A stretch of DNA of 64,000 nt from Escherichia phage vB_EcoM_SYGD1. This document shows, piece by piece, positions 15,112 through 32,842 of this stretch (the stretch's first letter is position 1; each line of letters begins with the position of its first letter). The notes below the pieces were generated by a model. It made no database searches and had not been told where the DNA came from. It saw nothing but the letters and a program-made list of their open reading frames with translations. The stretch lies in the sequence record MW883059. One strand, given 5' to 3'. A program made the translations under genes and the position numbers.

Positions 15112-15384
15112 ATGAATAAAAACATTGATACAGTTCGTGAAATTATTACTGTTGCGTCTATTTTGATTAAATTTTCCAGAGAAGATATTGTTGAGAATCG
15201 TGCTAATTTTATCGCATTTCTGAATGAGATTGGAGTAACGCATGAAGGTAGAAAGTTAAATCAGAATTCATTCCGTAAAATTGTTTCTGAATTAACCCAA
15301 GAAGATAAGAAAACCCTCATCGACGAATTCAACGAGGGTTTTGAGGGTGTATATCGATATCTAGAGATGTATACAAACAAATAA
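15112..15384 (+). CDS. asiA: anti-sigma70 factor AsiA (90 aa)
   Basis: MNKNIDTVREIITVASILIKFSREDIVENRANFIAFLNEIGVTHEGRKLNQ recognised as T4 AsiA. Confidence 0.93.
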   Translation: MNKNIDTVREIITVASILIKFSREDIVENRANFIAFLNEIGVTHEGRKLNQNSFRKIVSELTQEDKKTLIDEFNEGFEGVYRYLEMYTNK

Positions 15385-16041
15385 TTATTTAGCCCTTCCT
15401 AATATTCTGGCCGCCTGAGAACATATTGATTCAAGGCGGTCATTACTTATATGATCATTTCTATACCAGTACATGGTTATTGTTCCAGCATAGATATTAT
15501 CCAAATTGAAATATGGACAACTGTACATGTAATTTATTTCGGGAGTAGGCTTTTTAGTTGGCAAAAAAGCAAATTTTGAGTCGGAATAATAATGACGTCC
15601 ATTTAAATGAACTGTATATTCATCCATAGTTTTATCAACAGGATATCCTCCAAGTGATTTTTCGCTTATTGTTGAAGGTAATTTTCCTTCATATGCTATA
15701 ATATCAACAAAATAGTTTAAGTTTTTAGGGCGGAAAGAATACACCGCACTAAAGTCTGCCTCAGATGATATATGAACTATCTGGAGTTGTTCCAGGGCGA
15801 CAGATTCAAAGCGTGCAGTTCTTTCCTTTTCAATAATTTCACTGTATGTTTCATACTTTGATTGCTTATAGTACTCAAAGAAACTATCTCCCCTATACCA
15901 AACAATCGCCATCATAAATAAAAGAATTACGACAGCTACTCGGGAAGCAAGAACTTTCCCGGTAGCGTTATCTTTGAACAAGCGATCTAGAACACCCAAC
16001 AGAATATCAGAGGGCGAAAATGATATTCTAGGTGCTGCCAT
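15385..16041 (-). CDS. t: holin T (218 aa)
   Basis: Exact T4 holin length; N-terminal TMD and large periplasmic domain; adjacent to gene 38. Confidence 0.9.
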   Translation of the reverse strand: MAAPRISFSPSDILLGVLDRLFKDNATGKVLASRVAVVILLFMMAIVWYRGDSFFEYYKQSKYETYSEIIEKERTARFESVALEQLQIVHISSEADFSAVYSFRPKNLNYFVDIIAYEGKLPSTISEKSLGGYPVDKTMDEYTVHLNGRHYYSDSKFAFLPTKKPTPEINYMYSCPYFNLDNIYAGTITMYWYRNDHISNDRLESICSQAARILGRAK

Positions 16042-16071
16042 AGACCCTCCTTTTAAGGATATTTATTCAAA

Positions 16072-16860
<789 letters not shown>

Positions 16861-19800
16861 TTATACTCCAAAGAGAGGCGTTTTCAATTCTTTAATTTCT
16901 TCACTCATTTCCTGAATAGCCTTAATTAAAAGCGCGTTCACAGCAGAGTTAGAAATTGTTAAAATTTCTTCTGGGTTATCCTGAGATCCGACACTAGAAG
17001 TGCTAACAGCTTCCGGTAATACTTCTTGCAAATCCTGTGCGATAATACCAATCTCATGGCCGATAACTTCGCGGTCAGAAAGAGATTTAACTTTATCATA
17101 GGTTTTAACTTTGAGTTTATTTACCTTATCCACCGCATTCTCTTCGTAGTCTTCAACATTAATTTTCAGACGACGGTCAGAACGAATATAAACGTCGTTA
17201 CAATATACAGCAGCACCAGCAGTAAAATCACCGTTAAATGCAAATGCATAATCATTCCCACCCACATGCAATGCAACATGAGGATTACCACCGCCAGCAT
17301 GAACACCCATCGCCGCAAGGTGCTGTTCGCCCCAATGAGTAGCTTTCCAAATGTTATATGCTTGATTTCGTGAGTCCTGACAGTCTACCAACAATCCAGC
17401 CGGACGCGCTCTCCAGTCTACCCATGCACCACCGGAAATATCACCACGGATAAGAGCGTATTCACTATTATATGGAACACGCTCTCCCGCTTTAATCATT
17501 GCACCCTGAAAGTGATGACTAAATGAACCCCCATGATTATTTCGTATATGTAAAATACCATCATCTGTAGCCCAGATAACAGCCTTTTCTGCCTCGCTAT
17601 CATCTCTAAACCAGATATGGCGAGCACCAGCAGAGTTTTTGATAGTGATCCCGCTAGATCCATGCACGGTAAAAGTGCCAGCAACATCAAACATCAAACT
17701 GTTATCTGTCTTGCGTTCTGTATAGAAGTGATAACCTTTGGAATCACCGACTTCCATCACTGCCGAGCGACCAACTTCTGAATTTCCCCAATTATTGATA
17801 TGGAATCGTTCAGAGCTATTATTCATCTGATTTAGGTATAATGCACCATCAGTAAATGTTTCGCCAAAGAAACGAGTTTTAATTGCACCTGTCGCTAAAG
17901 TACGTTCAGTGGAAAAATGAGCGCCTTGACTATCTTCTAACTGGATGATGTTATCACGAGCATTATTACTATCACCCCAATGGTTAAATTTAAAATAATC
18001 TCGTGATCCTAAACGTCCGGCGTCAAAAGTCATCACGCCTTTCATGTTAATATCACCGTCGACCAGAACATTATCCGGGAAGTTAACAGTACCGTCTTGA
18101 TTAAAACGAGACGTATGGCCTTGTGAACCATCTTCTTTCAGATGATGAATAACGAATGTACCTGAACTAATCTCAGTACCTAAAGACCAAACGGCTTTAC
18201 CATTTAAAAACTTCTGTTTAACAATAGGATAATATTTGCTTATAGCATCATCATCAATTTCCTGGAAAATAGGAGCCGCTTGAGCATATTGAATGTCATA
18301 ACCACCAGCGCCTGCGCCATGACCAGTAAATTTAATATAGCCGTTTGCTGCGAACGTATTGTAACTTGATTGTAAATCTGGAATAGTAACTTTACCGGTA
18401 TCTAAAGCCATACTAAACGGGCGAAGTGGACCGATATCGCCATGTTTACCTTCACCATAAGCAGTTGGAATAATATGAAGACTGTTTTCTGAGCGACGGA
18501 AAATAGCTCCATAATCTGCGTTCCAAATGCGAAGCGCATTCACTGCTCCAGATGAAATTTCGCCTGTTGTGTGAACTCCTCTATTTCCAGCAGTAACACC
18601 AGATGATTCAAATGAACCATTGACGTTCATTTCTACTTCACCAGTAGTAAGTCTTTGAATATAACTCATCCAACTAGTTGCGTCAGAAATTTCCATAACG
18701 TTTTTACGATTACCTACACTAGGATTAGTAAACGTATTACCCCATACAGAAATTGTCATATTATCAACTGAGCTGCTACCAGTTGTGTTACCTCTAAACA
18801 TCAGTGTAGAAGCATTATTACGTCCATCAATATTAACCGAACCACCAATAACGTCAATATTGCCTGGAGTAACTAACAAACCGCCATGAGTATTAATGTT
18901 TGTAGTACCCTTACCGCGGAAATAATGATGATAGTTACCGCCTTGATAATATCCCAAAAGAGTCTGACCATCTCCAAACGCGTTATTATCGTGATAAGTA
19001 ACTACAGTTGCAAGAGCATAATTTTCAGTTGGAGGAGTAGTCAAATCAGTACCATTTACAGAATAACCCATAACCATTTTTCTAAGGCTAGTGGTTTCCG
19101 CCGGACCAGAAAGGAAAGTTTTTGTACCGTTGTTTACCGTAAAAAAATATCCATCCTGGTGCCATTTTAACCCGGTGTCATTATCACCAAGAGCAATTGA
19201 TGCAGTTCCTAATTCAGAATATCCTTTATTGCCACCAGGAGTACCAACAGAAATAGAATGACCGGCTTTCAATCCACCGGCCCAGTTAAACGACCAAAGA
19301 TAAGTGTCTAAGCCATCTCCGGAATACCAGGTTATTCCGTCATTAACATTAACTTCATGGAATATACCAGATCCTACGGCATTTCGCATAACACGGAGGT
19401 GGTTAATAGCCGTTTCGCTTTCTGCCAATGGAGTGTTATTTGATAATGAAGATATATCATAATCGCTCGTAGATTTATTATTAGTAATAACTCTATTTGT
19501 CAAAATCTGAGGAGTTGACATAGATTTCCATGCTGATACTTCAGGTGAAGTAAATAGGCCACTGCCTGAAAATGCATAGGTGCTTTCATCACCAGCGGCG
19601 TAGTCTTTAACGCGGATATTAACTACTTGCGTAGTTAATCCATCATTAGCCGGGGCATAAATGATTCCACGTTCACGATCAGCTGAATCATGAAAACGAA
19701 CATGTGCTGTACCTGAACTTTTTGTAATAAGTTCTCCGCCTTCGGTCATAATCTGCCCGGCGGCAATAATATCGCGAGTTACTCGAGCAATACCAGTTAA

Positions 19801-20061
19801 ATTAAAATTACCTGTCTGAGTGAAAGTGCCATTTAAAGTATAATCACCAGTTTGATTATAGTTTCCTGTATGAATAACATTCCCGTCAATGCTACCGCCT
19901 TTAGCAAAACCCAGATCAATAATATTTCCTTGGTCGTCTTTAGTAAAAAGTACGCGGTCTTTTAAGTTTATAGCCAATTCACCTTCGGCTAATACTGAAG
20001 CGGCAGGACGGGCTCCTGCAGTTTTGCTTCTTTTAAATTGTATTTGTTTTAAAGTAGCCAT
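16861..20061 (-). CDS. 37: long tail fibre distal subunit gp37 (1066 aa) with C-terminal intramolecular-chaperone-like domain
   Basis: Synteny 34-35-36-37-38; C-terminal ~106 aa begin SDRRLKINVEDY and contain IGIIAQDLQEVLPEAV. Confidence 0.88.
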   Translation of the reverse strand: MATLKQIQFKRSKTAGARPAASVLAEGELAINLKDRVLFTKDDQGNIIDLGFAKGGSIDGNVIHTGNYNQTGDYTLNGTFTQTGNFNLTGIARVTRDIIAAGQIMTEGGELITKSSGTAHVRFHDSADRERGIIYAPANDGLTTQVVNIRVKDYAAGDESTYAFSGSGLFTSPEVSAWKSMSTPQILTNRVITNNKSTSDYDISSLSNNTPLAESETAINHLRVMRNAVGSGIFHEVNVNDGITWYSGDGLDTYLWSFNWAGGLKAGHSISVGTPGGNKGYSELGTASIALGDNDTGLKWHQDGYFFTVNNGTKTFLSGPAETTSLRKMVMGYSVNGTDLTTPPTENYALATVVTYHDNNAFGDGQTLLGYYQGGNYHHYFRGKGTTNINTHGGLLVTPGNIDVIGGSVNIDGRNNASTLMFRGNTTGSSSVDNMTISVWGNTFTNPSVGNRKNVMEISDATSWMSYIQRLTTGEVEMNVNGSFESSGVTAGNRGVHTTGEISSGAVNALRIWNADYGAIFRRSENSLHIIPTAYGEGKHGDIGPLRPFSMALDTGKVTIPDLQSSYNTFAANGYIKFTGHGAGAGGYDIQYAQAAPIFQEIDDDAISKYYPIVKQKFLNGKAVWSLGTEISSGTFVIHHLKEDGSQGHTSRFNQDGTVNFPDNVLVDGDINMKGVMTFDAGRLGSRDYFKFNHWGDSNNARDNIIQLEDSQGAHFSTERTLATGAIKTRFFGETFTDGALYLNQMNNSSERFHINNWGNSEVGRSAVMEVGDSKGYHFYTERKTDNSLMFDVAGTFTVHGSSGITIKNSAGARHIWFRDDSEAEKAVIWATDDGILHIRNNHGGSFSHHFQGAMIKAGERVPYNSEYALIRGDISGGAWVDWRARPAGLLVDCQDSRNQAYNIWKATHWGEQHLAAMGVHAGGGNPHVALHVGGNDYAFAFNGDFTAGAAVYCNDVYIRSDRRLKINVEDYEENAVDKVNKLKVKTYDKVKSLSDREVIGHEIGIIAQDLQEVLPEAVSTSSVGSQDNPEEILTISNSAVNALLIKAIQEMSEEIKELKTPLFGV

Positions 20062-20069
20062 AAGTCCTC

Positions 20070-20726
20070 TTAATAATAGCCGAAATCTTGAACAGAATCC
20101 TTAATAACAATTTGATCAAATCGTGGAACATGCGAAGGTTGAGATGCAGGATTCTGTGAAAAAAGGTTTGGCGCAGTTAAATTTCCTGTCATAGTATCTC
20201 CAGAGCGTAATACTCTAGAGTTTGCGTTTGCTGTAACAATATTTATTGCTCCATCAACATAATCTTTCCGTGTAAGGTCATAATTATTTACTGGAGATAA
20301 TGAAGCTGCGCGTATTTGTGATGCTTCAATTACACCCTTTGAGCTAATATCTCCATTTCGCGTGTTAATTACTACAGTTCTACCTGCTGTTCCTTGTGAT
20401 GATTTAAAACCAATACCATACCACGAAACAATATCCATATTTGTAGTATCATACGTGGCATTATCACCAGGACCAGCAAAAATACCATTGTCACCTGACC
20501 CTGCACCAGGAACAGTCATTCCTTTGTTAAAAATTACTTTATTTAAATACGTACCACCATTAGCTTTAGAAACGAAATCGTTATCAGCAGCTTGTGGTTT
20601 ATTGTATTCTGAATATATTTTAAATGATTTATAGAGTACATCGTCACCGGCTGGATTCAATGGAAAATTTCCTTGATGCCAAATGACAGAGCCTCCAGTT
20701 GTTGAACCTACTTTTAAATCAGCCAT
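20070..20726 (-). CDS. 36: long tail fibre distal connector gp36
   Basis: 218 aa vs T4 221 aa; synteny. Confidence 0.85.
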   Translation of the reverse strand: MADLKVGSTTGGSVIWHQGNFPLNPAGDDVLYKSFKIYSEYNKPQAADNDFVSKANGGTYLNKVIFNKGMTVPGAGSGDNGIFAGPGDNATYDTTNMDIVSWYGIGFKSSQGTAGRTVVINTRNGDISSKGVIEASQIRAASLSPVNNYDLTRKDYVDGAINIVTANANSRVLRSGDTMTGNLTAPNLFSQNPASQPSHVPRFDQIVIKDSVQDFGYY

Positions 20727-20749
20727 TGTATGCCCCTTTATTTTAATAG

Positions 20750-20757
20750 TATTTATA
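20750..20757 (-). promoter_or_regulatory. T4 late promoter TATAAATA for genes 36-37-38
   Basis: TATTTATA on plus strand about 24 nt upstream of gene 36 start. Confidence 0.6.
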
Positions 20758-20783
20758 AAGAAAAAGGGAACCCGAAGGCTCCC
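20758..20783 (-). terminator. hairpin plus U tract downstream of gene 35
   Basis: Minus strand reads AGGGAGCC-UUCG-GGUUCCCU followed by UUUUUCUUU. Confidence 0.55.
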
Positions 20784-20788
20784 TCAAT

Positions 20789-21904
20789 TTAAACTTCTCT
20801 AAATTCTTGTCCAAACACTTTACCAGTTTTAGACGATGCTTGCGTAGGAAGTACCATTATATCCGGAGGTGAAGCAGATTCACAGACATAATTAACTCGA
20901 ATACCATTGACGCCAAATTCAGCAGGTTTTGAAATTCCGCCATTTCTTGATACTTCAGAAAAGCTTAAATTTCTCATGCCACCTTGACCTGCTTGGGCAG
21001 TTCTTTGTGCATATATCGTAAATCCCGCTGCATTTTCTGGAATAACTACATAATCTTCCTTTAATTCCCATGACCCAGCTTGTCCGGTAAACTCAGCATA
21101 TGTTGAAGAAATATATCCATTCGATTCATCATAAAAACGGATAGATATATTTGTAGTTCCAAGCGCAAGTAAATCGGCATCAGCATATAACTGCGCTTTA
21201 AGATAAAGAACATCGCCAGGAATTAAATTATAATCAGATAATTTACTTATCGCGGATGAAGTTGGTAAACGTGCAATTTCGTTATTAGTTCCACCAACCG
21301 CTGACATAAATTGCTCAACGCTTTCATATGTTCTTTTAGGAAATCCTGTAGCTCCAACGTCTTCTAAACTGTCAAATACAACATCTAAAATAGTTTGATA
21401 ATCATCTGTGCTTTTTCTATTACTTAGTTTAACATGTTCTAACGCAATAGCTCTTTTAGAAGATGTATAAAAGGCAGCATATGATACGTCAAATCTTGAC
21501 AATATAGAATCAGATGGAAAAGCAGACGTTCCTGTGGCTCTTAGCCAAGATACTACTTCAGGAGGAAAATTAACCTTTCCGCTAGTTAATATAGCAACAA
21601 GTCTATTATTCGTCAAAGAGTCCATGAAACTAACAAAAGCAGCTGATGTGGTATCATTTGAAGTCGAAAAAGCATATGACTTACTATCTACTAATGCTCC
21701 TGTAGAAGGGTCAAAAACTCTTAAATGAAGACCTGCGTTAAATGTTTGACTTCCGATAGGATTATCCTGAAATTTGACATATGGTCCTGCTGTAGAAAGC
21801 GGGCAAGAACCCGCTATGCTTATTTTATATCTTACTGAATTGCTTTCCGATAAAAATGGCGTTTGGACATATCCTTGTCCAAACTCTGCCATAAATTTTT
21901 CCAT
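20789..21904 (-). CDS. 35: long tail fibre hinge protein gp35
   Basis: 371 aa vs T4 372 aa; synteny. Confidence 0.85.
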   Translation of the reverse strand: MEKFMAEFGQGYVQTPFLSESNSVRYKISIAGSCPLSTAGPYVKFQDNPIGSQTFNAGLHLRVFDPSTGALVDSKSYAFSTSNDTTSAAFVSFMDSLTNNRLVAILTSGKVNFPPEVVSWLRATGTSAFPSDSILSRFDVSYAAFYTSSKRAIALEHVKLSNRKSTDDYQTILDVVFDSLEDVGATGFPKRTYESVEQFMSAVGGTNNEIARLPTSSAISKLSDYNLIPGDVLYLKAQLYADADLLALGTTNISIRFYDESNGYISSTYAEFTGQAGSWELKEDYVVIPENAAGFTIYAQRTAQAGQGGMRNLSFSEVSRNGGISKPAEFGVNGIRVNYVCESASPPDIMVLPTQASSKTGKVFGQEFREV

Positions 21905-21912
21905 AATACCTC

Positions 21913-24900
21913 TTATTCAACCCATTCAAATTTAACCGTTTTATTCACTGGGTCAGGAATAATGCGAACATTACCAATTCGTAAGAAATCACGAATAGTA
22001 AGATTCCCCATTATAGCATTATCAGATGGTAAAGCACCAATATCAGATGGCTGAGGAGGGTTACCCCCATCAAATACCTGAACAAAACTTGACCAAGAGT
22101 TTTTGGTTTTCTGCCATGTACGCGTCCAGCGAGTGGTGCGCGCTTCTGGGGTCGTTGGATAAGTAATCCAATCTTGGTAAAGCGAATCGAGTGTGTTACC
22201 AAATTGAGTCAGCGTACCAGGAGATTTAACCTCTTCACCGCGTTCTAAGTATGGAAGTCCAGTCACTTCATTAGTTTTTTCAACCATCTTAAAATAACCC
22301 GGGAACTGGTTATAAGTGGCTGAATCATTAATATCGATTGACCAGAATCCTACAGTATCAGATGTTGGCGCACGGGTATATAAATCAGAGGTTTTAGTAC
22401 CTTGAGAACGAATTCTCGAGTTAACAGTTAAACCACCTGAAGTTATAGTAGCACCTTTGGCAATGATTAAGCTTTCACCAATTGTAACCTGACCAGATTG
22501 ATTATTAATTGATAATGGGCGTAATCCATTAAATCCACCAGTCTGATCGCCAGATGCAGTAAGCATAAAATAGGTGTTAGCAGCATCATTACGAATAAAG
22601 AATCCATAATCACCGTTTATTGCTCTAAAAGCATTCGACGATTTACTGATAAATTCGCCATTAGCAGTAACTGAACTACCGAATGTTGCAACGCCGTTCG
22701 CGTTCAAAGAACCTAAAGCATTCACATTTATTGGCATTACAGTACCATTAATGCTAAATGCTATATTACCATCTTTATCGCGTTGAGAATAAAAGTGATA
22801 AGATGTTTCATCACTAACTTCAAATACGGTAGAACGTGTTGTGTTTGATTCCCCACTAAATTGATTCCCCCACACGCTGACTGTCATTGTTTGAGCCGGG
22901 TTCGTTCCAGTTTGAGGTCCTTTCTCAAAAATCAGACGAGTTGCTGTTCCATCAGTATTAGAAATGGTTAGTGTACTATTTGCTGAAACTGATCCACCAA
23001 ACGTAGCAGTACTAGATGATACAAGAGGGGCACTCAGATTCGTTTGTTGGGTTAAGGTTAGTGAACCATTAACCGTCTGTGCAATATCCCTACGAATGAA
23101 CTGAGATGAATCTAGACCATCCAGTAAATTACTATCTACGGCTTTTGCTTTTAACGGCAAATAATTTGCTAATACACGGTTTAATTCATATGGTGATACT
23201 GCATAGCTATTTTTCTCATATAGCTCTAAGTTCTGTGTAGAACCAACTGTATCATTACCAACGAATGTAATTGAACCGGATGAAGTTTTAACAAAACCTC
23301 TTATCGCAGTAGTAGCTGCCCAAGTAGGTTCACTCTGCACAATCCATTTTAAATTTTTTGGAGATACAGCAGTATTTGCTGACGTTCCAGTCACAGTTTC
23401 AGACTGAGTTGCAACTTTAATAACACCTTCTTGTGCTTCAGTAGATTTAGTACCTAAAAGCTTTTTAGGAGTTATTAAAACATTATCTAATTTTCCTGCA
23501 GCAGCTTCAACTTGTGTAGCTACACGAAGTGTACCACGCTGTGTCTCATTTGCTTCAAGAATATTAAGGGTATAATGGTCCCAGAGAGTTCCTGATTCAA
23601 CTAATCCAGATAGAGCAACAACAGAAGTACGATCAGTACTATTAAATCTAGTTTTAATTTTTAATGGTGTAGAGATACGAGTATCGTCGACGCCTGCGTC
23701 GAATTCAACTTGTGTAGCAATTTCAGCTATACCACTTAAACTTTCAGTTGCTTTACGGTCATTTAAAGTTTTAGGAGTGACTGCACGAGTATAATCAGTT
23801 CCTGTATTAACTTCACTTTGCGTAGCAATTTCAATTAAACCAATTCTTCCATCAGTTGATGTCTTTTTATGTAACGTTTCTGGCGTTACAACCGCATTTG
23901 CCCATCCTTCTTGGCTTTGCCCAGCAATTACTTCACTTTCAACTGCTAAAATTACTGCACCTTGTTGTGTTGGAGTAGCTTTATACTGATCCAAAGCTTT
24001 AGGCGAAACAACTAAATTATTGGTGCTTTTATTATAAACGTTTGTACCATTTAATTCACGACTAGAAGCTGGAGTAGCTCCTGCAGTAGATACAAAGGTT
24101 ACAATACCAGATAATGATTCAGAACCTTGTCGAGCTTGAAGCTTTTTAGGAGTGATGATTGTAGTATCATCAGTACCTGCATTAGTTTCTTGCTGTGTAG
24201 CAATTTCAGCAACACCTCTACGAGTTTCTGTGGCAGTTCTTTCATTCAGCTTTTTAGGAGTGATGATAATATCATCAGCAAAAGAGAATGTAGTATCCTG
24301 GTTCACTTGGGCAGTAGTTGCTATTCTTGCGATACCTCTGCGAGTTTCTGTAGCAGTACGGTTAGCTAATGTTTCTGGTGTAATTGCTAATTCTTTTTGC
24401 GGAGAATTTTCTAAATCAGCATTTGCTTGAGCTTGTGTAGCTAAAGCTATTACGCCTAATCTTGCTCTAGTAGAATCATTTAAAGAATCAACTCTTTCAA
24501 CTGTTGGCACGTTTTGCTGCACCACCCAGTATTTTCCATCAGAATCTTCTATATAAGCAAGCTGTAAAACTGGAACATAATTAGTTTCGCCGTTAAAAAC
24601 TAATTCTTGAACAGTCACCCATTTAGTTTCAGGCGGATATTCTGAACGTTTTGGGAATTGCAGCAATTGAACTGAAGAAGCAATTTTATCTTCACCGGCA
24701 GCTTTGATTTTAACTGTTTGGCCTTTTCTCATGTAATTCATGGAAATTTTAACAGTATCACCAATGGAAATATTAGTTGGAAGCTGAAGTTCAATTGTTT
24801 GGGTTGTTCCGTTATTCGCTCCAAATACCATAACTTCTTCATTTGGACGAATACTAGAATTAGTTGTTATAATACGTAAACGTGCTTTACTATCACCGTC

Positions 24901-25785
24901 AAACAATCTCCACAATTTTTCATTATCATCATACATCAAGAAACCATCAATCGATGTACGGCCTTCAATGGAATGAGTTCCAACTTCTTGCACTGAAGTT
25001 GTTTCATCGTATGTAGTAACAATTGTATGATAAAGTGGATTTAATTTGTCTAAATCGACGAAATTAATAATATCGCCATGATTAGCAAATCTCGGAAGTT
25101 TAATATTAATCGCCGCGGCTGAAGTAAATCTGCGCACGATAAAATCGTTAGATTGCGCCTGATAAAGACTTGCCGGTGTTACGACTACAGCTTCTCTGCT
25201 ATAATCAGCAACATACATTTGCCACAGACGATTACTAAAAATTAAAACTATCTGCGATTTTGGATGAGTCATTAGTACTGAACGTACTTGTTCGCCTCTG
25301 AAGTTTACAATACTTTGCACTGGAGCTACAATTAAAACTTGGTTAACACCAGGTTTTCCACCAATATCTTGAAGAACGATAGTATCTCCATCAATTGGAG
25401 AAGATGGCAAAGTAAATGTAATGTCATTACCGGCTGCAGTATCAACTGAAATTGATTCGCCTGACTTTAATTGATAAGGTCCTGATGAAACAGTTGTCCA
25501 ATTAGCATCAGTACGTAATGATCTCCAACGTACGCTATTAAAAGCTCCTGCTGGTTTTGGAATATCATTTATAGCAGCCCAAAAGCGGTTATCATAAATG
25601 ATTACAAAATCTTTTAAATATCCACGAGTTGGATCGTATTGTTGAACTGTGTTTTCTTGAATTAAGTAATCAACGTTAACACCGTCAGTTCCTACGGTAC
25701 GATCAGCTAAAGCTACGTTGATTATTTTATCGCCACCTGCGTCCAGACCGTCTTCTGCTCTGAACTTTCTTTTAATCTCGGCCAT
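21913..25785 (-). CDS. 34: long tail fibre proximal subunit gp34 (1290 aa)
   Basis: Length as T4 gp34 (1289 aa); repeated TxxE/RxxG fibre motifs; synteny. Confidence 0.9.
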   Translation of the reverse strand: MAEIKRKFRAEDGLDAGGDKIINVALADRTVGTDGVNVDYLIQENTVQQYDPTRGYLKDFVIIYDNRFWAAINDIPKPAGAFNSVRWRSLRTDANWTTVSSGPYQLKSGESISVDTAAGNDITFTLPSSPIDGDTIVLQDIGGKPGVNQVLIVAPVQSIVNFRGEQVRSVLMTHPKSQIVLIFSNRLWQMYVADYSREAVVVTPASLYQAQSNDFIVRRFTSAAAINIKLPRFANHGDIINFVDLDKLNPLYHTIVTTYDETTSVQEVGTHSIEGRTSIDGFLMYDDNEKLWRLFDGDSKARLRIITTNSSIRPNEEVMVFGANNGTTQTIELQLPTNISIGDTVKISMNYMRKGQTVKIKAAGEDKIASSVQLLQFPKRSEYPPETKWVTVQELVFNGETNYVPVLQLAYIEDSDGKYWVVQQNVPTVERVDSLNDSTRARLGVIALATQAQANADLENSPQKELAITPETLANRTATETRRGIARIATTAQVNQDTTFSFADDIIITPKKLNERTATETRRGVAEIATQQETNAGTDDTTIITPKKLQARQGSESLSGIVTFVSTAGATPASSRELNGTNVYNKSTNNLVVSPKALDQYKATPTQQGAVILAVESEVIAGQSQEGWANAVVTPETLHKKTSTDGRIGLIEIATQSEVNTGTDYTRAVTPKTLNDRKATESLSGIAEIATQVEFDAGVDDTRISTPLKIKTRFNSTDRTSVVALSGLVESGTLWDHYTLNILEANETQRGTLRVATQVEAAAGKLDNVLITPKKLLGTKSTEAQEGVIKVATQSETVTGTSANTAVSPKNLKWIVQSEPTWAATTAIRGFVKTSSGSITFVGNDTVGSTQNLELYEKNSYAVSPYELNRVLANYLPLKAKAVDSNLLDGLDSSQFIRRDIAQTVNGSLTLTQQTNLSAPLVSSSTATFGGSVSANSTLTISNTDGTATRLIFEKGPQTGTNPAQTMTVSVWGNQFSGESNTTRSTVFEVSDETSYHFYSQRDKDGNIAFSINGTVMPINVNALGSLNANGVATFGSSVTANGEFISKSSNAFRAINGDYGFFIRNDAANTYFMLTASGDQTGGFNGLRPLSINNQSGQVTIGESLIIAKGATITSGGLTVNSRIRSQGTKTSDLYTRAPTSDTVGFWSIDINDSATYNQFPGYFKMVEKTNEVTGLPYLERGEEVKSPGTLTQFGNTLDSLYQDWITYPTTPEARTTRWTRTWQKTKNSWSSFVQVFDGGNPPQPSDIGALPSDNAIMGNLTIRDFLRIGNVRIIPDPVNKTVKFEWVE

Positions 25786-31973: not shown

Positions 31974-32522
31974 ATGAAACAATACCAAGATTTAATTAAA
32001 GACATTTTTGAAAATGGCTATGAAACCGATGACCGAACAGGCACAGGAACAATTGCTTTATTCGGTACTAAATTACGCTGGGATTTAACTAAAGGTTTTC
32101 CTGCGGTAACAACTAAGAAGCTCGCCTGGAAAGCTTGCATTGCTGAGCTACTTTGGTTTTTATCAGGAAGCACAAATGTCAATGATTTACGATTAATTCA
32201 GCATGATTCGTTAATCCAAGGCAAAACAGTTTGGGATGAAAATTACGAAAATCAGGCAAAAGATTTAGGATACCATAGTGGTGAACTTGGCCCAATTTAT
32301 GGAAAACAGTGGCGCGATTTTGGCGGTGTAGATCAAATTGTAGAAGTTGTTAATCGTATTAAAACATTTCCCAACGATAGGCGTCAAATTGTGTCGGCAT
32401 GGAATCCAGCTGAACTTAAATATATGGCATTACCACCTTGTCATATGTTCTATCAGTTTAATGTGCGTAATGGTTATCTTGATTTACAATGGTATCAACG
32501 CAGTGTAGATGTTTTCTTGGGT
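31974..32522 (+). CDS. td: thymidylate synthase, exon 1 (183 codons)
   Basis: Ends ...DLQWYQRSVDVFLG at the known T4 td 5' splice site; in-frame TAA begins the intron. Confidence 0.92.
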
Positions 32523-32842
32523 TAATTGAGGCCTAGGTATAAGGTGACTTATACTTGTAATCTATCTAAACGGGGGACCTCTCTAGTAGACAATCCCGTG
32601 CTAAATTGTAGGACTACCCTTTAATAATTTCATCAGGATTAGTTACTTACCGTGTAAAATCTGATAAATGGAATTGGTTCTACATAAATGCCTAACGACT
32701 ATCCCTTTGGGGAGTAGGGTCAAGTGACTCGAAACGATAGACAACTTGCTTTAACAAGTTGAAGATATAGTCTGATCTGCATGGTGACATGCAGCTGGAT
32801 ATAATTCCGGGGTAAGATTAACGACCTTATCTGAACATAATG
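32523..32842 (+). ncRNA. group I self-splicing intron in td, 320 nt, no endonuclease ORF
   Basis: Starts UAAUUGAGGCCU...GUAAUCUAUCUAAACGGGG, ends ...CUGAACAUAAUG as the T4 td intron; 3' half matches recalled T4 core; no internal ORF. Confidence 0.85.

Follow-up and report, generated by a model that had tools for sequence, protein, structure and literature searches.

A predicted self-cleaving gp37 tip and a naturally chimeric gp38 adhesin in the long tail fiber locus of Escherichia phage vB_EcoM_SYGD1

The analyzed stretch of Escherichia phage vB_EcoM_SYGD1 (64,000 nt of sequence record MW883059, hereafter the window) appears to carry the module for the distal tip of a long tail fiber of the T2/S16 type from a Tequatrovirus-like phage, in which gp37 is predicted to end in a self-cleaving intramolecular chaperone (IMC) and gp38 to be the adhesin that caps the processed tip. 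We assign a probability of about 0.88 to the whole explanation, that is, a gp37 precursor, folding by the IMC, self-cleavage, capping by gp38 and recognition of O157-type OmpC. It is built on family membership, a Ser-Lys motif, a characteristic fold, receptor loops identical to those of phage PP01 and a chimeric origin of gp38, all of which were found in the window. A self-cleaving gp37 module combined with a gp38 adhesin is already described biology; the features new to this locus are the chimeric gp38 and a 66-nt deletion at the junction of genes 37 and 38.

The genes are arranged in the order 36-37-38-t, with gp36 at 20070-20726, gp37 at 16861-20061, gp38 at 16072-16857 and the holin t at 15385-16041 (genes 37 and 38 and all features within them lie on the minus strand). 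Gene 37, as given by the list of open reading frames, encodes the precursor of the distal long tail fiber subunit (1066 aa, 115.6 kDa). Its stop codon occupies 16863-16861 and the ATG of gene 38 follows only 3 nt later. Pfam places Gp34_trimer on gp37 residues 450-550 and Peptidase_S74 on residues 961-1019. The DNA of gene 37 is ~92% identical to that of gp37 of ESh27 and phiC120, and the exact protein has no record in the exact-protein index. Scanning gp37 and gp38 against NCBIfam returned no family, which is uninformative because that library is prokaryote-centered, and a promoter and terminator scan of 15300-20800 gave only background-level signals with nothing specific to the 37/38 junction.

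A preliminary description of this DNA had proposed that the last ~106 residues of gp37 resemble the autocleaving trimerization chaperones of other phage fibers, and the family match, the Ser-Lys motif and the predicted fold all bear this out. Translation of 17181 to 16864 gives exactly 106 residues (SDRRLKINVEDY...IGIIAQDLQEVLPEAV...KTPLFGV; gp37 residues 961-1066, 11.8 kDa), which form the extreme C-terminus of the 1066-residue protein and would be released after trimerization. The 106 residues alone match PF13884 (Peptidase_S74) over model positions 1-57 of 58 (E = 5.6e-16, 59 bits), and across searches with gp37 the match ranged from 54.6 to 59 bits (E = 1.3e-14 to 5.6e-16, curated cut-off 22 bits); the similarity is far above chance. 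Model position 1 falls on S961, the residue encoded from 17181, exactly where the earlier description had started the domain; at its other end, the proposed range of 16861-17181 took in the stop codon, and the domain proper is 16864-17181. The C-terminal region of gp37 is also homologous, across the cleavage site, to the S16 gp37 construct 6f45_A (E = 8e-12), and the IMC aligns with the C-terminal ends of 36 PHROG tail-fiber or spike families. The search for homologues of the gp37 C-terminus returned 34 sequences, mostly fragments, a set sufficient for an alignment and a model rather than for family-wide statistics. In the AlphaFold2 monomer model the predicted fold consists of beta-hairpins and a long C-terminal helix, and solved IMC structures were the only ones that it matched. 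DSSP places the modeled helix at positions 98-124 of the 126-aa query, corresponding to gp37 residues 1038-1064 (16870-16950); in solved IMCs the counterpart of this helix forms a trimeric coiled coil (PMC8326128, PMC4690869). The solved IMCs of the endosialidase endoNF (3GW6), GA-1 gp12 (3GUD), T5 pb1 (4UW8) and the eukaryotic MyRF ICA (7DC3) have low identity to that of the window (12-22%). The long 'tentacle' insertion seen in endoNF and T5 is missing from the IMC of the window (~106 aa compared with 133-153).

The domain opens with the motif S961-D-R-R-L-K966 (17164-17181), predicted from conservation and spacing to contain a catalytic Ser-Lys dyad. Among 26 aligned homologues K966 is invariant, and S961, D962, R964 and L965 are each kept in at least 90%. 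The spacing of S961 and K966 equals that of S911 and K916 in endoNF (SNGERK), with the register taken from hhalign and Pfam; the alignment of the 26-homologue profile with the single endoNF C-terminus is weak (E = 0.021, 2% probability) and was therefore used for the register only, the homology being drawn from the Pfam and fold searches. The same Ser-x4-Lys spacing is found in T5 (S1264/K1269, PMC4690869) and MyRF (S587/K592, PMC8326128). The scissile bond is predicted to be R960|S961 (DVYIR960|S961, between 17182 and 17181), and processing would convert the 115.6-kDa precursor into fragments of 103.8 and 11.8 kDa. The putative mature gp37 (residues 1-960, 103.8 kDa, 17182-20061) would end with the conserved last strand GAAVYCNDVYIR, three copies of which would form the docking face for gp38.

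When homologues are aligned, the junction DVYIR|SDRRLK falls on the S16 cleavage site DLNVS^SDRRIKK and on DVYIR^SDGRLKI of the fPS phages. In the fPS phages this sequence has already been predicted as a cleavage junction, and the junction DVYIR|SD(R/G)RLKI is common to their gp37 and the type in the window; processing of S16 gp37 is documented (PMC7917993), as is autocleavage in T5 (PMC4690869) and in endoNF. For T2 and T6, processing of gp37 followed by capping with gp38 is documented in the account of PMC3157838, which cites Drexler 1986. The residue at P1, R960, is conserved in the RB32, T2, PP01 and M1 types. Fourteen residues upstream of S961 stands T947, with no positional match to the arginine folding sensor of endoNF (R897) and T5 (R1250). 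This arginine is supplied by the neighboring chain of the preceding beta-helix and also contributes to the oxyanion hole. Here the sensor role may fall to another residue, such as R960, or to none; MyRF shows no requirement for an arginine sensor (PMC8326128).

By analogy with homologues, we infer the following course for gp37 cleavage, chaperone release, gp38 docking and receptor recognition in this phage. The protein would be made as a 1066-aa precursor, whose C-terminal 106-residue IMC would trimerize via its long helix and template the fold of the preceding interdigitated beta-helical tip. After correct folding of the trimer, S961, activated by K966, would cut each chain between R960 and S961, and departure of the 11.8-kDa chaperone would expose a flat triangular end made of the conserved DVYIR strands. 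One gp38 monomer would then dock by its N-terminal three-helix bundle, with W9, W22 and W37 each entering one of three symmetry-related pockets, and would present five loops from its polyglycine-II sandwich to O157-type OmpC of E. coli. In this it would differ from the IMC proteins endoNF, GA-1 gp12, T5 pb1 and MyRF: the end exposed on release would bind a separate adhesin and would not itself be the receptor site.

Gene 38 (16072-16857) encodes a protein of 261 aa (26.3 kDa) that had been described beforehand as a glycine-rich adhesin of the T2 type, a description with which the family, structure and composition data agree. Both PF05268 (GP38, E = 4.3e-72) and PF21721 (Gp38_N, E = 1e-20) match with full-model coverage, the PDB matches include the receptor-binding domain of PP01 gp38 (9v85, E = 3e-142) and S16 gp38 (6f45_D, E = 7e-51), and the protein falls in PHROG 2056, annotated as 'tail fiber protein; host specificity'. 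Glycine accounts for 24% of the whole protein and 33% of residues 116-261, with runs including GGGGGGGG at residues 153-160 and GGGGG at 174-178. The N-terminal attachment domain (residues 1-42, 16732-16857) is of the RB32/SQ17/M1 type. Its tryptophans W9, W22 and W37 are conserved in all eight aligned gp38 sequences and align with those of S16; three N-terminal tryptophans dock gp38 on the cleaved gp37 tip (PMC6851490). These matches support assigning the gene 38 product to the adhesins of the T2/S16 type rather than to the chaperones of the T4 type.

Among the closest known systems are the tips of S16 and T2. Salmonella phage S16 (PDB 6F45; Dunne et al. 2018) has the same architecture: the C-terminal IMC of gp37 is autocleaved just before SDRR(I/L)K, and a single gp38 is attached by three tryptophans and carries a polyglycine-II sandwich with five receptor loops. 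S16 differs from the window in the length of the IMC (113 aa), in having Ser rather than Arg at P1 (DLNVS^S versus DVYIR^S), in an unrelated tip upstream of the last strand, in other gp38 loops and in its host, Salmonella (OmpC). In T2, the gp37 C-terminus is likewise processed and capped by a gp38 adhesin of ~260 aa, according to the account in PMC3157838 (citing Drexler, Riede & Henning 1986); the gene order is also 37-38-t and the junction is NVYIR|SDIRLK. The T2 IMC is 47% identical to that of the window. The receptor-binding part of T2 gp38 is only ~53% identical and is therefore of a different receptor-binding type.

The remainder of gp38 in the window, a beta-helix and polyglycine-II sandwich forming the receptor-binding part (residues 47-261, 16075-16719), is of the PP01 type. 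It is 99% identical to PP01 gp38, and residues 38-261 are nearly identical to the crystallized 9v85. From PP01 residue 41 onward the only differences are V44K, V46I and N236S (PP01 numbering), of which V44K lies just upstream of the receptor-binding part and N236S, near loop E, is the sole change within the receptor-binding domain proper. It had been suggested beforehand that the variable segments between the glycine runs determine host range; these segments coincide with the receptor loops that experiments have defined in PP01 gp38 (PMC12892980), which strengthens that suggestion. In an alignment with this adhesin of known specificity, all five loops, located by the published definitions (PMC12892980) at 16480-16497 (A), 16342-16371 (B), 16285-16302 (C), 16225-16242 (D) and 16159-16179 (E), are identical in the window. 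The residues that matter in PP01 by mutagenesis or cross-linking (Y159, K168, Y169, G208, Y209, A228 and Y230; PMC12892980) are also identical (7/7). Since the loops are the same, O157-type OmpC of E. coli, with GVIN in loop 7, is the predicted primary receptor.

A shift or broadening of specificity through the different gp37 context or N236S, toward LPS or another porin for instance, is rather unlikely. Single substitutions in the hypervariable regions of Ox2 gp38 can switch the receptor, as cited in PMC12892980, and a range of E. coli and Shigella hosts served to isolate the closest whole-genome relatives. However, the five loops and the seven functionally tested residues do not differ from those of PP01, and an engineered chimera with a T2 N-terminal and a PP01 C-terminal part stayed dependent on OmpC(O157) when placed on a foreign gp37 (PMC12892980).

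The two parts of gp38 come from different sources, and the protein is a natural chimera of an RB32-type attachment domain and a PP01-type receptor-binding part. Residues 1-29 are 100% identical to RB32, SQ17 and ESh27 and 52% identical to PP01. By sliding 60-nt identity, RB32 and SQ17 are 97-100% identical to the window from ~17430 to ~16741, except for two segments over the junction deletion (RB32 80-85%), and PP01 is 97-100% identical from ~16710 to 15991, except for three segments in 16590-16471 at 88-95%. The crossover zone therefore lies within gene 38 at 16680-16740, RB32/SQ17-like upstream in gene orientation (higher coordinates) and PP01-like downstream. The attachment domain, the gp37 tip and the IMC are all of the same RB32 type. 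In phages of the RB32/SQ17/phiC120/ZN18 type, the DNA of the IMC and tip is 98-99.6% identical to the window, with 100% protein identity across 104 aa of the IMC in SQ17, whereas their gp38 receptor-binding parts are 52-55% identical; PP01, in turn, has a gp37 tip and IMC of another type. The match of the attachment domain to the gp37 tip and IMC fits the experimental result that PP01 gp38 does not function on T2 gp37 without exchange of its N-terminal part (PMC12892980).

The chimera in the window is thus a natural analogue of the engineered gp38T2-PP01. Origin from an engineered phage (DT2 or the gp38T2-PP01 constructs, PMC12892980) was considered and rejected, given that the N-terminal part is of the RB32 type, not T2, and that the crossover falls at about residue 45-60, not 113. 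An identical gp38 was moreover found on an independent Logan contig, where gp37 is 94% identical and the 37/38 junction is intact.

At that junction the window carries a 66-nt deletion, seen when it is aligned with RB32, SQ17, ESh27, FL15 and M1 (junction CTCTTT|GGAG at 16866-16875, between 16870 and 16869). In relatives the deleted segment contains the final 13 codons of gene 37 (TKIARKISKYFKF) together with the stop codon and a GC hairpin. The IMC of the RB32/SQ17/phiC120/ZN18 type has 117 aa and ends in ...KTP(L/F)FTKIARKIS(K/N)YFKF, followed by the GC hairpin, and this ending and the hairpin are both lost in the window; the tail of full-length gp37 in relatives reads ...KTPLFTKIARKISKYFKF. 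The deletion leaves the IMC 11 residues short of its length in all close relatives, and the Shine-Dalgarno sequence of gene 38 (GGAG, 16866-16869) has come to fall within gene 37. The conserved intercistronic hairpin, which folds in relatives with a predicted energy of -13 to -17 kcal/mol, is missing from the junction in the window. The extended stem of this hairpin in relatives can pair with the Shine-Dalgarno region of gene 38. No other copy of the deletion was seen in the phage collection (25 listed records of 274 matching), IMG/VR, the JGI metagenomes or the exact-protein index. In all 25 of those listed records a 91-nt query across the junction aligned in two pieces spanning ~155 nt, that is, with ~65 nt extra.

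The deletion may affect folding or cleavage. That it has crippled the IMC, leaving gp37 poorly folded or uncleaved and the locus defective, with the variant non-viable or the junction an artefact of assembly or sequencing, is nevertheless very unlikely. Its absence from the 25 listed records and from the IMG/VR and JGI sequences would fit such a defect, as would the lack of a record for the exact gp37 and the intact junction on the only other contig with an identical gp38. Against this, the deletion starts past the Pro that ends the long helix, and the Pfam-matched core, the catalytic motif and the helix at 1038-1064 are intact. After IQEMSEE, homologues differ freely in the sequence and length of their tails, several of them (for example P0003, P0019 and P0021) having tails as short or shorter, and the IMCs of T2 and PP01 also stop soon after the helix; the Shine-Dalgarno sequence and ATG of gene 38 are kept. 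It also seems improbable that the deletion is non-neutral, altering the gp38:gp37 expression ratio or coupling translation through loss of the hairpin and the 3-nt spacing of the two genes, and selected after the gain of the PP01-type domain, with the 13-residue basic tail of the RB32-type chaperone being dispensable.

A T4-type arrangement, in which gp38 is a folding chaperone outside the virion and gp37 retains its C-terminus and binds the receptor, is scarcely credible and was rejected: some gene 38 homologues are labeled 'long tail fiber assembly chaperone/catalyst', but these labels are transfers from T4 nomenclature, gp38 matches the adhesin families PF05268 and PF21721 and is 99% identical to the crystallized PP01 receptor-binding domain, which cross-links to OmpC (PMC12892980), and the C-terminus of gp37 is an S74 chaperone rather than a needle tip of the T4 type, with no T4 gp37 tip recovered in a PDB search with full gp37.

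For a self-cleaving gp37 capped by a gp38 adhesin, the result is useful for annotation and host-range prediction rather than surprising. The end of mature gp37 can be placed at the predicted R960, gene 38 should be labeled an adhesin and not an 'assembly chaperone', and a receptor can be named from near-identity to the structurally and genetically dissected PP01 gp38 (OmpC, E. coli O157). The deletion at the junction is a small natural experiment on how dispensable the chaperone tail and the intercistronic hairpin are. The natural chimera with an RB32 N-terminal and a PP01 C-terminal part shows in the field the same module boundary that engineers have used, with an attachment domain that has to fit the gp37 tip and a receptor-binding part that can be exchanged, a rule that bears on the rational retargeting of T-even phages.

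The tail-fibre genes of the window form a T-even block on the minus strand, comprising gp34 (21913-25785, 1290 aa), gp35 (20789-21904, 371 aa), gp36 (20070-20726, 218 aa), gp37 (16861-20061, 1066 aa), gp38 (16072-16857, 261 aa) and holin t (15385-16041, 218 aa). Across its first 25 kb, the window shares ~95-96% identity with many genomes of Tequatrovirus and Mosigvirus-like coliphages and Shigella phages. ARAGORN detected no tRNA genes within the 64-kb window (1-64000). On the plus strand, a group I intron (about 32526-32842; RF00028, 70.3 bits over the full model, Rfam match 32513-32794) interrupts a thymidylate synthase (td)-like gene, between exon 1 (31974-32525, ending in ...DVFLG) and exon 2 (from about 32843, beginning with LPFNIASYA). 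This intron is only ~0.3 kb long and has no homing-endonuclease ORF, in contrast to the td intron of T4, which carries I-TevI.

The preliminary description, which placed an intramolecular-chaperone-like module of about 106 residues at the C-terminus of gp37, was correct in both content and coordinates, because translation of 17181..16864 gives exactly 106 residues (SDRRLKINVEDY...IGIIAQDLQEVLPEAV...KTPLFGV) followed by TAA at 16863-16861, so that the range 16861-17181 takes in the stop codon. The likeness to chaperone domains was also borne out: Peptidase_S74 (PF13884, "chaperone of endosialidase") matched gp37 residues 961-1019 with 54.6 bits (E = 1.3e-14; Pfam cut-off 22 bits), covering model positions 1-57 of 58 with position 1 at S961, and among solved structures the S16 gp37 construct 6f45_A matched the C-terminal 156 aa (E = 8e-12) across the junction "...AIYCRDLNVSSDRRIKK...". 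Weaker sequence matches of the same 156 aa were a phage tail fibre (8jov) and the MyRF ICA domain (7dc3). The Ser-x4-Lys motif has the same spacing as S911/K916 of endoNF (phage K1F sequence, register confirmed by hhalign), S1264/K1269 of T5 pb1 (PMC4690869) and S587/K592 of MyRF (PMC8326128). Among 26 aligned homologues, K966 is invariant, and S961, D962, R964, L965 and the GIIAQ...PEAV core are at least 90% conserved. While endoNF and T5 have an Arg "folding sensor" 14 residues upstream of the Ser, window gp37 has T947 at this position and lacks a positional Arg counterpart, as does MyRF. The module was found by tblastn in 1224 phage records, including T-even distal fibres, T5-like L-shaped fibres and streptococcal PblB proteins, and 36 different PHROG families of tail fibres and tailspikes align with it at their extreme C-terminus. 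Dozens of deposited genomes carry identical or near-identical sequences of this intramolecular chaperone (IMC).

The window gp37 junction reads DVYIR/SDRRLKI. Because the S16 cleavage site (DLNVS/SDRRIKK) and that predicted for fPS Yersinia phages (DVYIR/SDGRLKI; both PMC7917993) are placed at the matching position, cleavage is predicted from these homologues at R960/S961 (window 17182/17181), and the 115.6-kDa precursor would yield a mature gp37 of 103.8 kDa and a chaperone of 11.8 kDa. For T2 and T6, the textbook account, in the part of PMC3157838 citing Drexler et al. (1986), is that gp37 is processed proteolytically at its C-terminus and then capped by gp38.

Gene 38 proved to encode the T2-type adhesin previously described, with matches to GP38 (E = 4e-72) and Gp38_N (E = 1e-20) in Pfam and to the structures of S16 gp38 (6f45_D, E = 7e-51) and the PP01 gp38 receptor-binding domain (9v85, E = 3e-142). 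Several public records name its homologues "long tail fiber assembly chaperone/catalyst", a label taken over from T4 that is wrong for adhesins of this type. S16 gp38 docks by three tryptophans (PMC6851490), whose counterparts in the window are W9, W22 and W37, and by homology gp38 would dock onto gp37. Receptor loops A-E, as defined for PP01 gp38 (PMC12892980), are identical in window gp38, as are the PP01-tested residues Y159, K168, Y169, G208, Y209, A228 and Y230; from PP01 residue 41 on, the sole differences are V44K, V46I and N236S (PP01 numbering). Thus the alignment with adhesins of known specificity, suggested earlier, points to O157-type OmpC as the probable receptor. In PP01, loop E engages the cleft of OmpC-O157 between loops 5 and 7, the site of the GVIN insertion (PMC12892980).

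Among deposited phages, no full-length gp38 was more than ~87% identical at the DNA level. Identity to RB32, SQ17 and ESh27 is 100% over residues 1-29 (52% to PP01) and 94% over residues 30-46 (59% to PP01), whereas residues 47-261 show 99% identity to PP01, with residues 116-261 sharing just 52-55% with the RB32 group. In sliding DNA comparison, similarity is RB32/SQ17-like (97-100%) from ~17430 to ~16741, outside the intervals across a junction deletion, and PP01-like (97-100%) from ~16710 to 15991, except for a dip to 88-95% at ~16590-16471. The crossover falls in a conserved stretch of gene 38 (about 16680-16740, minus strand), with the gene 37 side RB32/SQ17-like and the receptor-binding and holin side PP01-like. 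The attachment domain thus moves together with the tip and IMC of gp37, and the receptor-binding part was imported. The mosaic mirrors an experiment with PP01 gp38, which did not work on T2 gp37 until the N-terminal part of T2 gp38 was put in place of its own. One independent contig, Logan DRR831768, encodes an identical 261-aa gp38, and the chimera is therefore natural. The attachment domain of M1 and FL15 is 97-100% identical to that of window gp38, and their gp37 tips (FHYDGTFYSPGNG...) are unrelated to the window's upstream of the final NDVYIR strand (window 17182-17460 compared), which suggests that gp38 docking depends mainly on the last gp37 strand and overall fold.

In all close relatives, gp37 ends in ...KELKTP(L/F)FTKIARKIS(K/N)YFKF and stop, followed by a GC hairpin and TTTGGAG...ATG of gene 38. 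The hairpin is kept across T2, PP01, RB32 and SQ17 despite quite different gp37 and gp38 sequences, with G-run/C-run stems and loops of UUCG type (T2, PP01), UUU (RB32) or AAAUG (SQ17, GGGGGAAATGCCCCC); the extended SQ17 fold is predicted to pair with the gene 38 Shine-Dalgarno region. Compared with all close relatives, the window has lost 66 nt (16866-16875, junction 16870/16869, minus strand) between the short repeats CTCTTT and CCCTTT, which takes the final 13 gene 37 codons and the hairpin. As a result, gp37 ends in ...KTPLFGV (two residues in place of 13), the hairpin fold is lost (-13 to -17 kcal/mol in relatives, -3.9 in the window), the GGAG of gene 38 is within gene 37, and 3 nt separate the gene 37 stop codon from the ATG of gene 38. 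Of 274 matching records, the 25 listed all align across the junction in two pieces spanning ~65 nt more than the window, and the junction is intact in the Logan contig that encodes the identical gp38. No other record or collection searched had the deletion: exact-protein look-up found no record of this gp37, and the fused junction string was absent from IMG/VR and JGI metagenomes, where the intact junction is found. A functional effect of the deletion is possible but unlikely. The deletion starts after the helix-ending Pro of the IMC, and C-terminal tails vary widely among the 26 homologues, some being shorter than that of the window. A database protein of 77 aa (P0027, ENA, 4.76-Mb contig) joins an IMC C-terminus in-frame with a gp38-like N-terminus (...AEIAEPKGLNNGSYNSPGWIGQSAVSETGKTG), and may be another rearranged 37/38 junction, the remnant of a prophage, or a gene that was called wrongly.

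What was observed is real, and the analysis supports its interpretation. The finding re-describes the established T2/S16-type system of processed gp37 and gp38 adhesin; two modest points are specific to the window, namely the natural chimera of an adhesin with PP01 loops and the deletion at the 37/38 junction.
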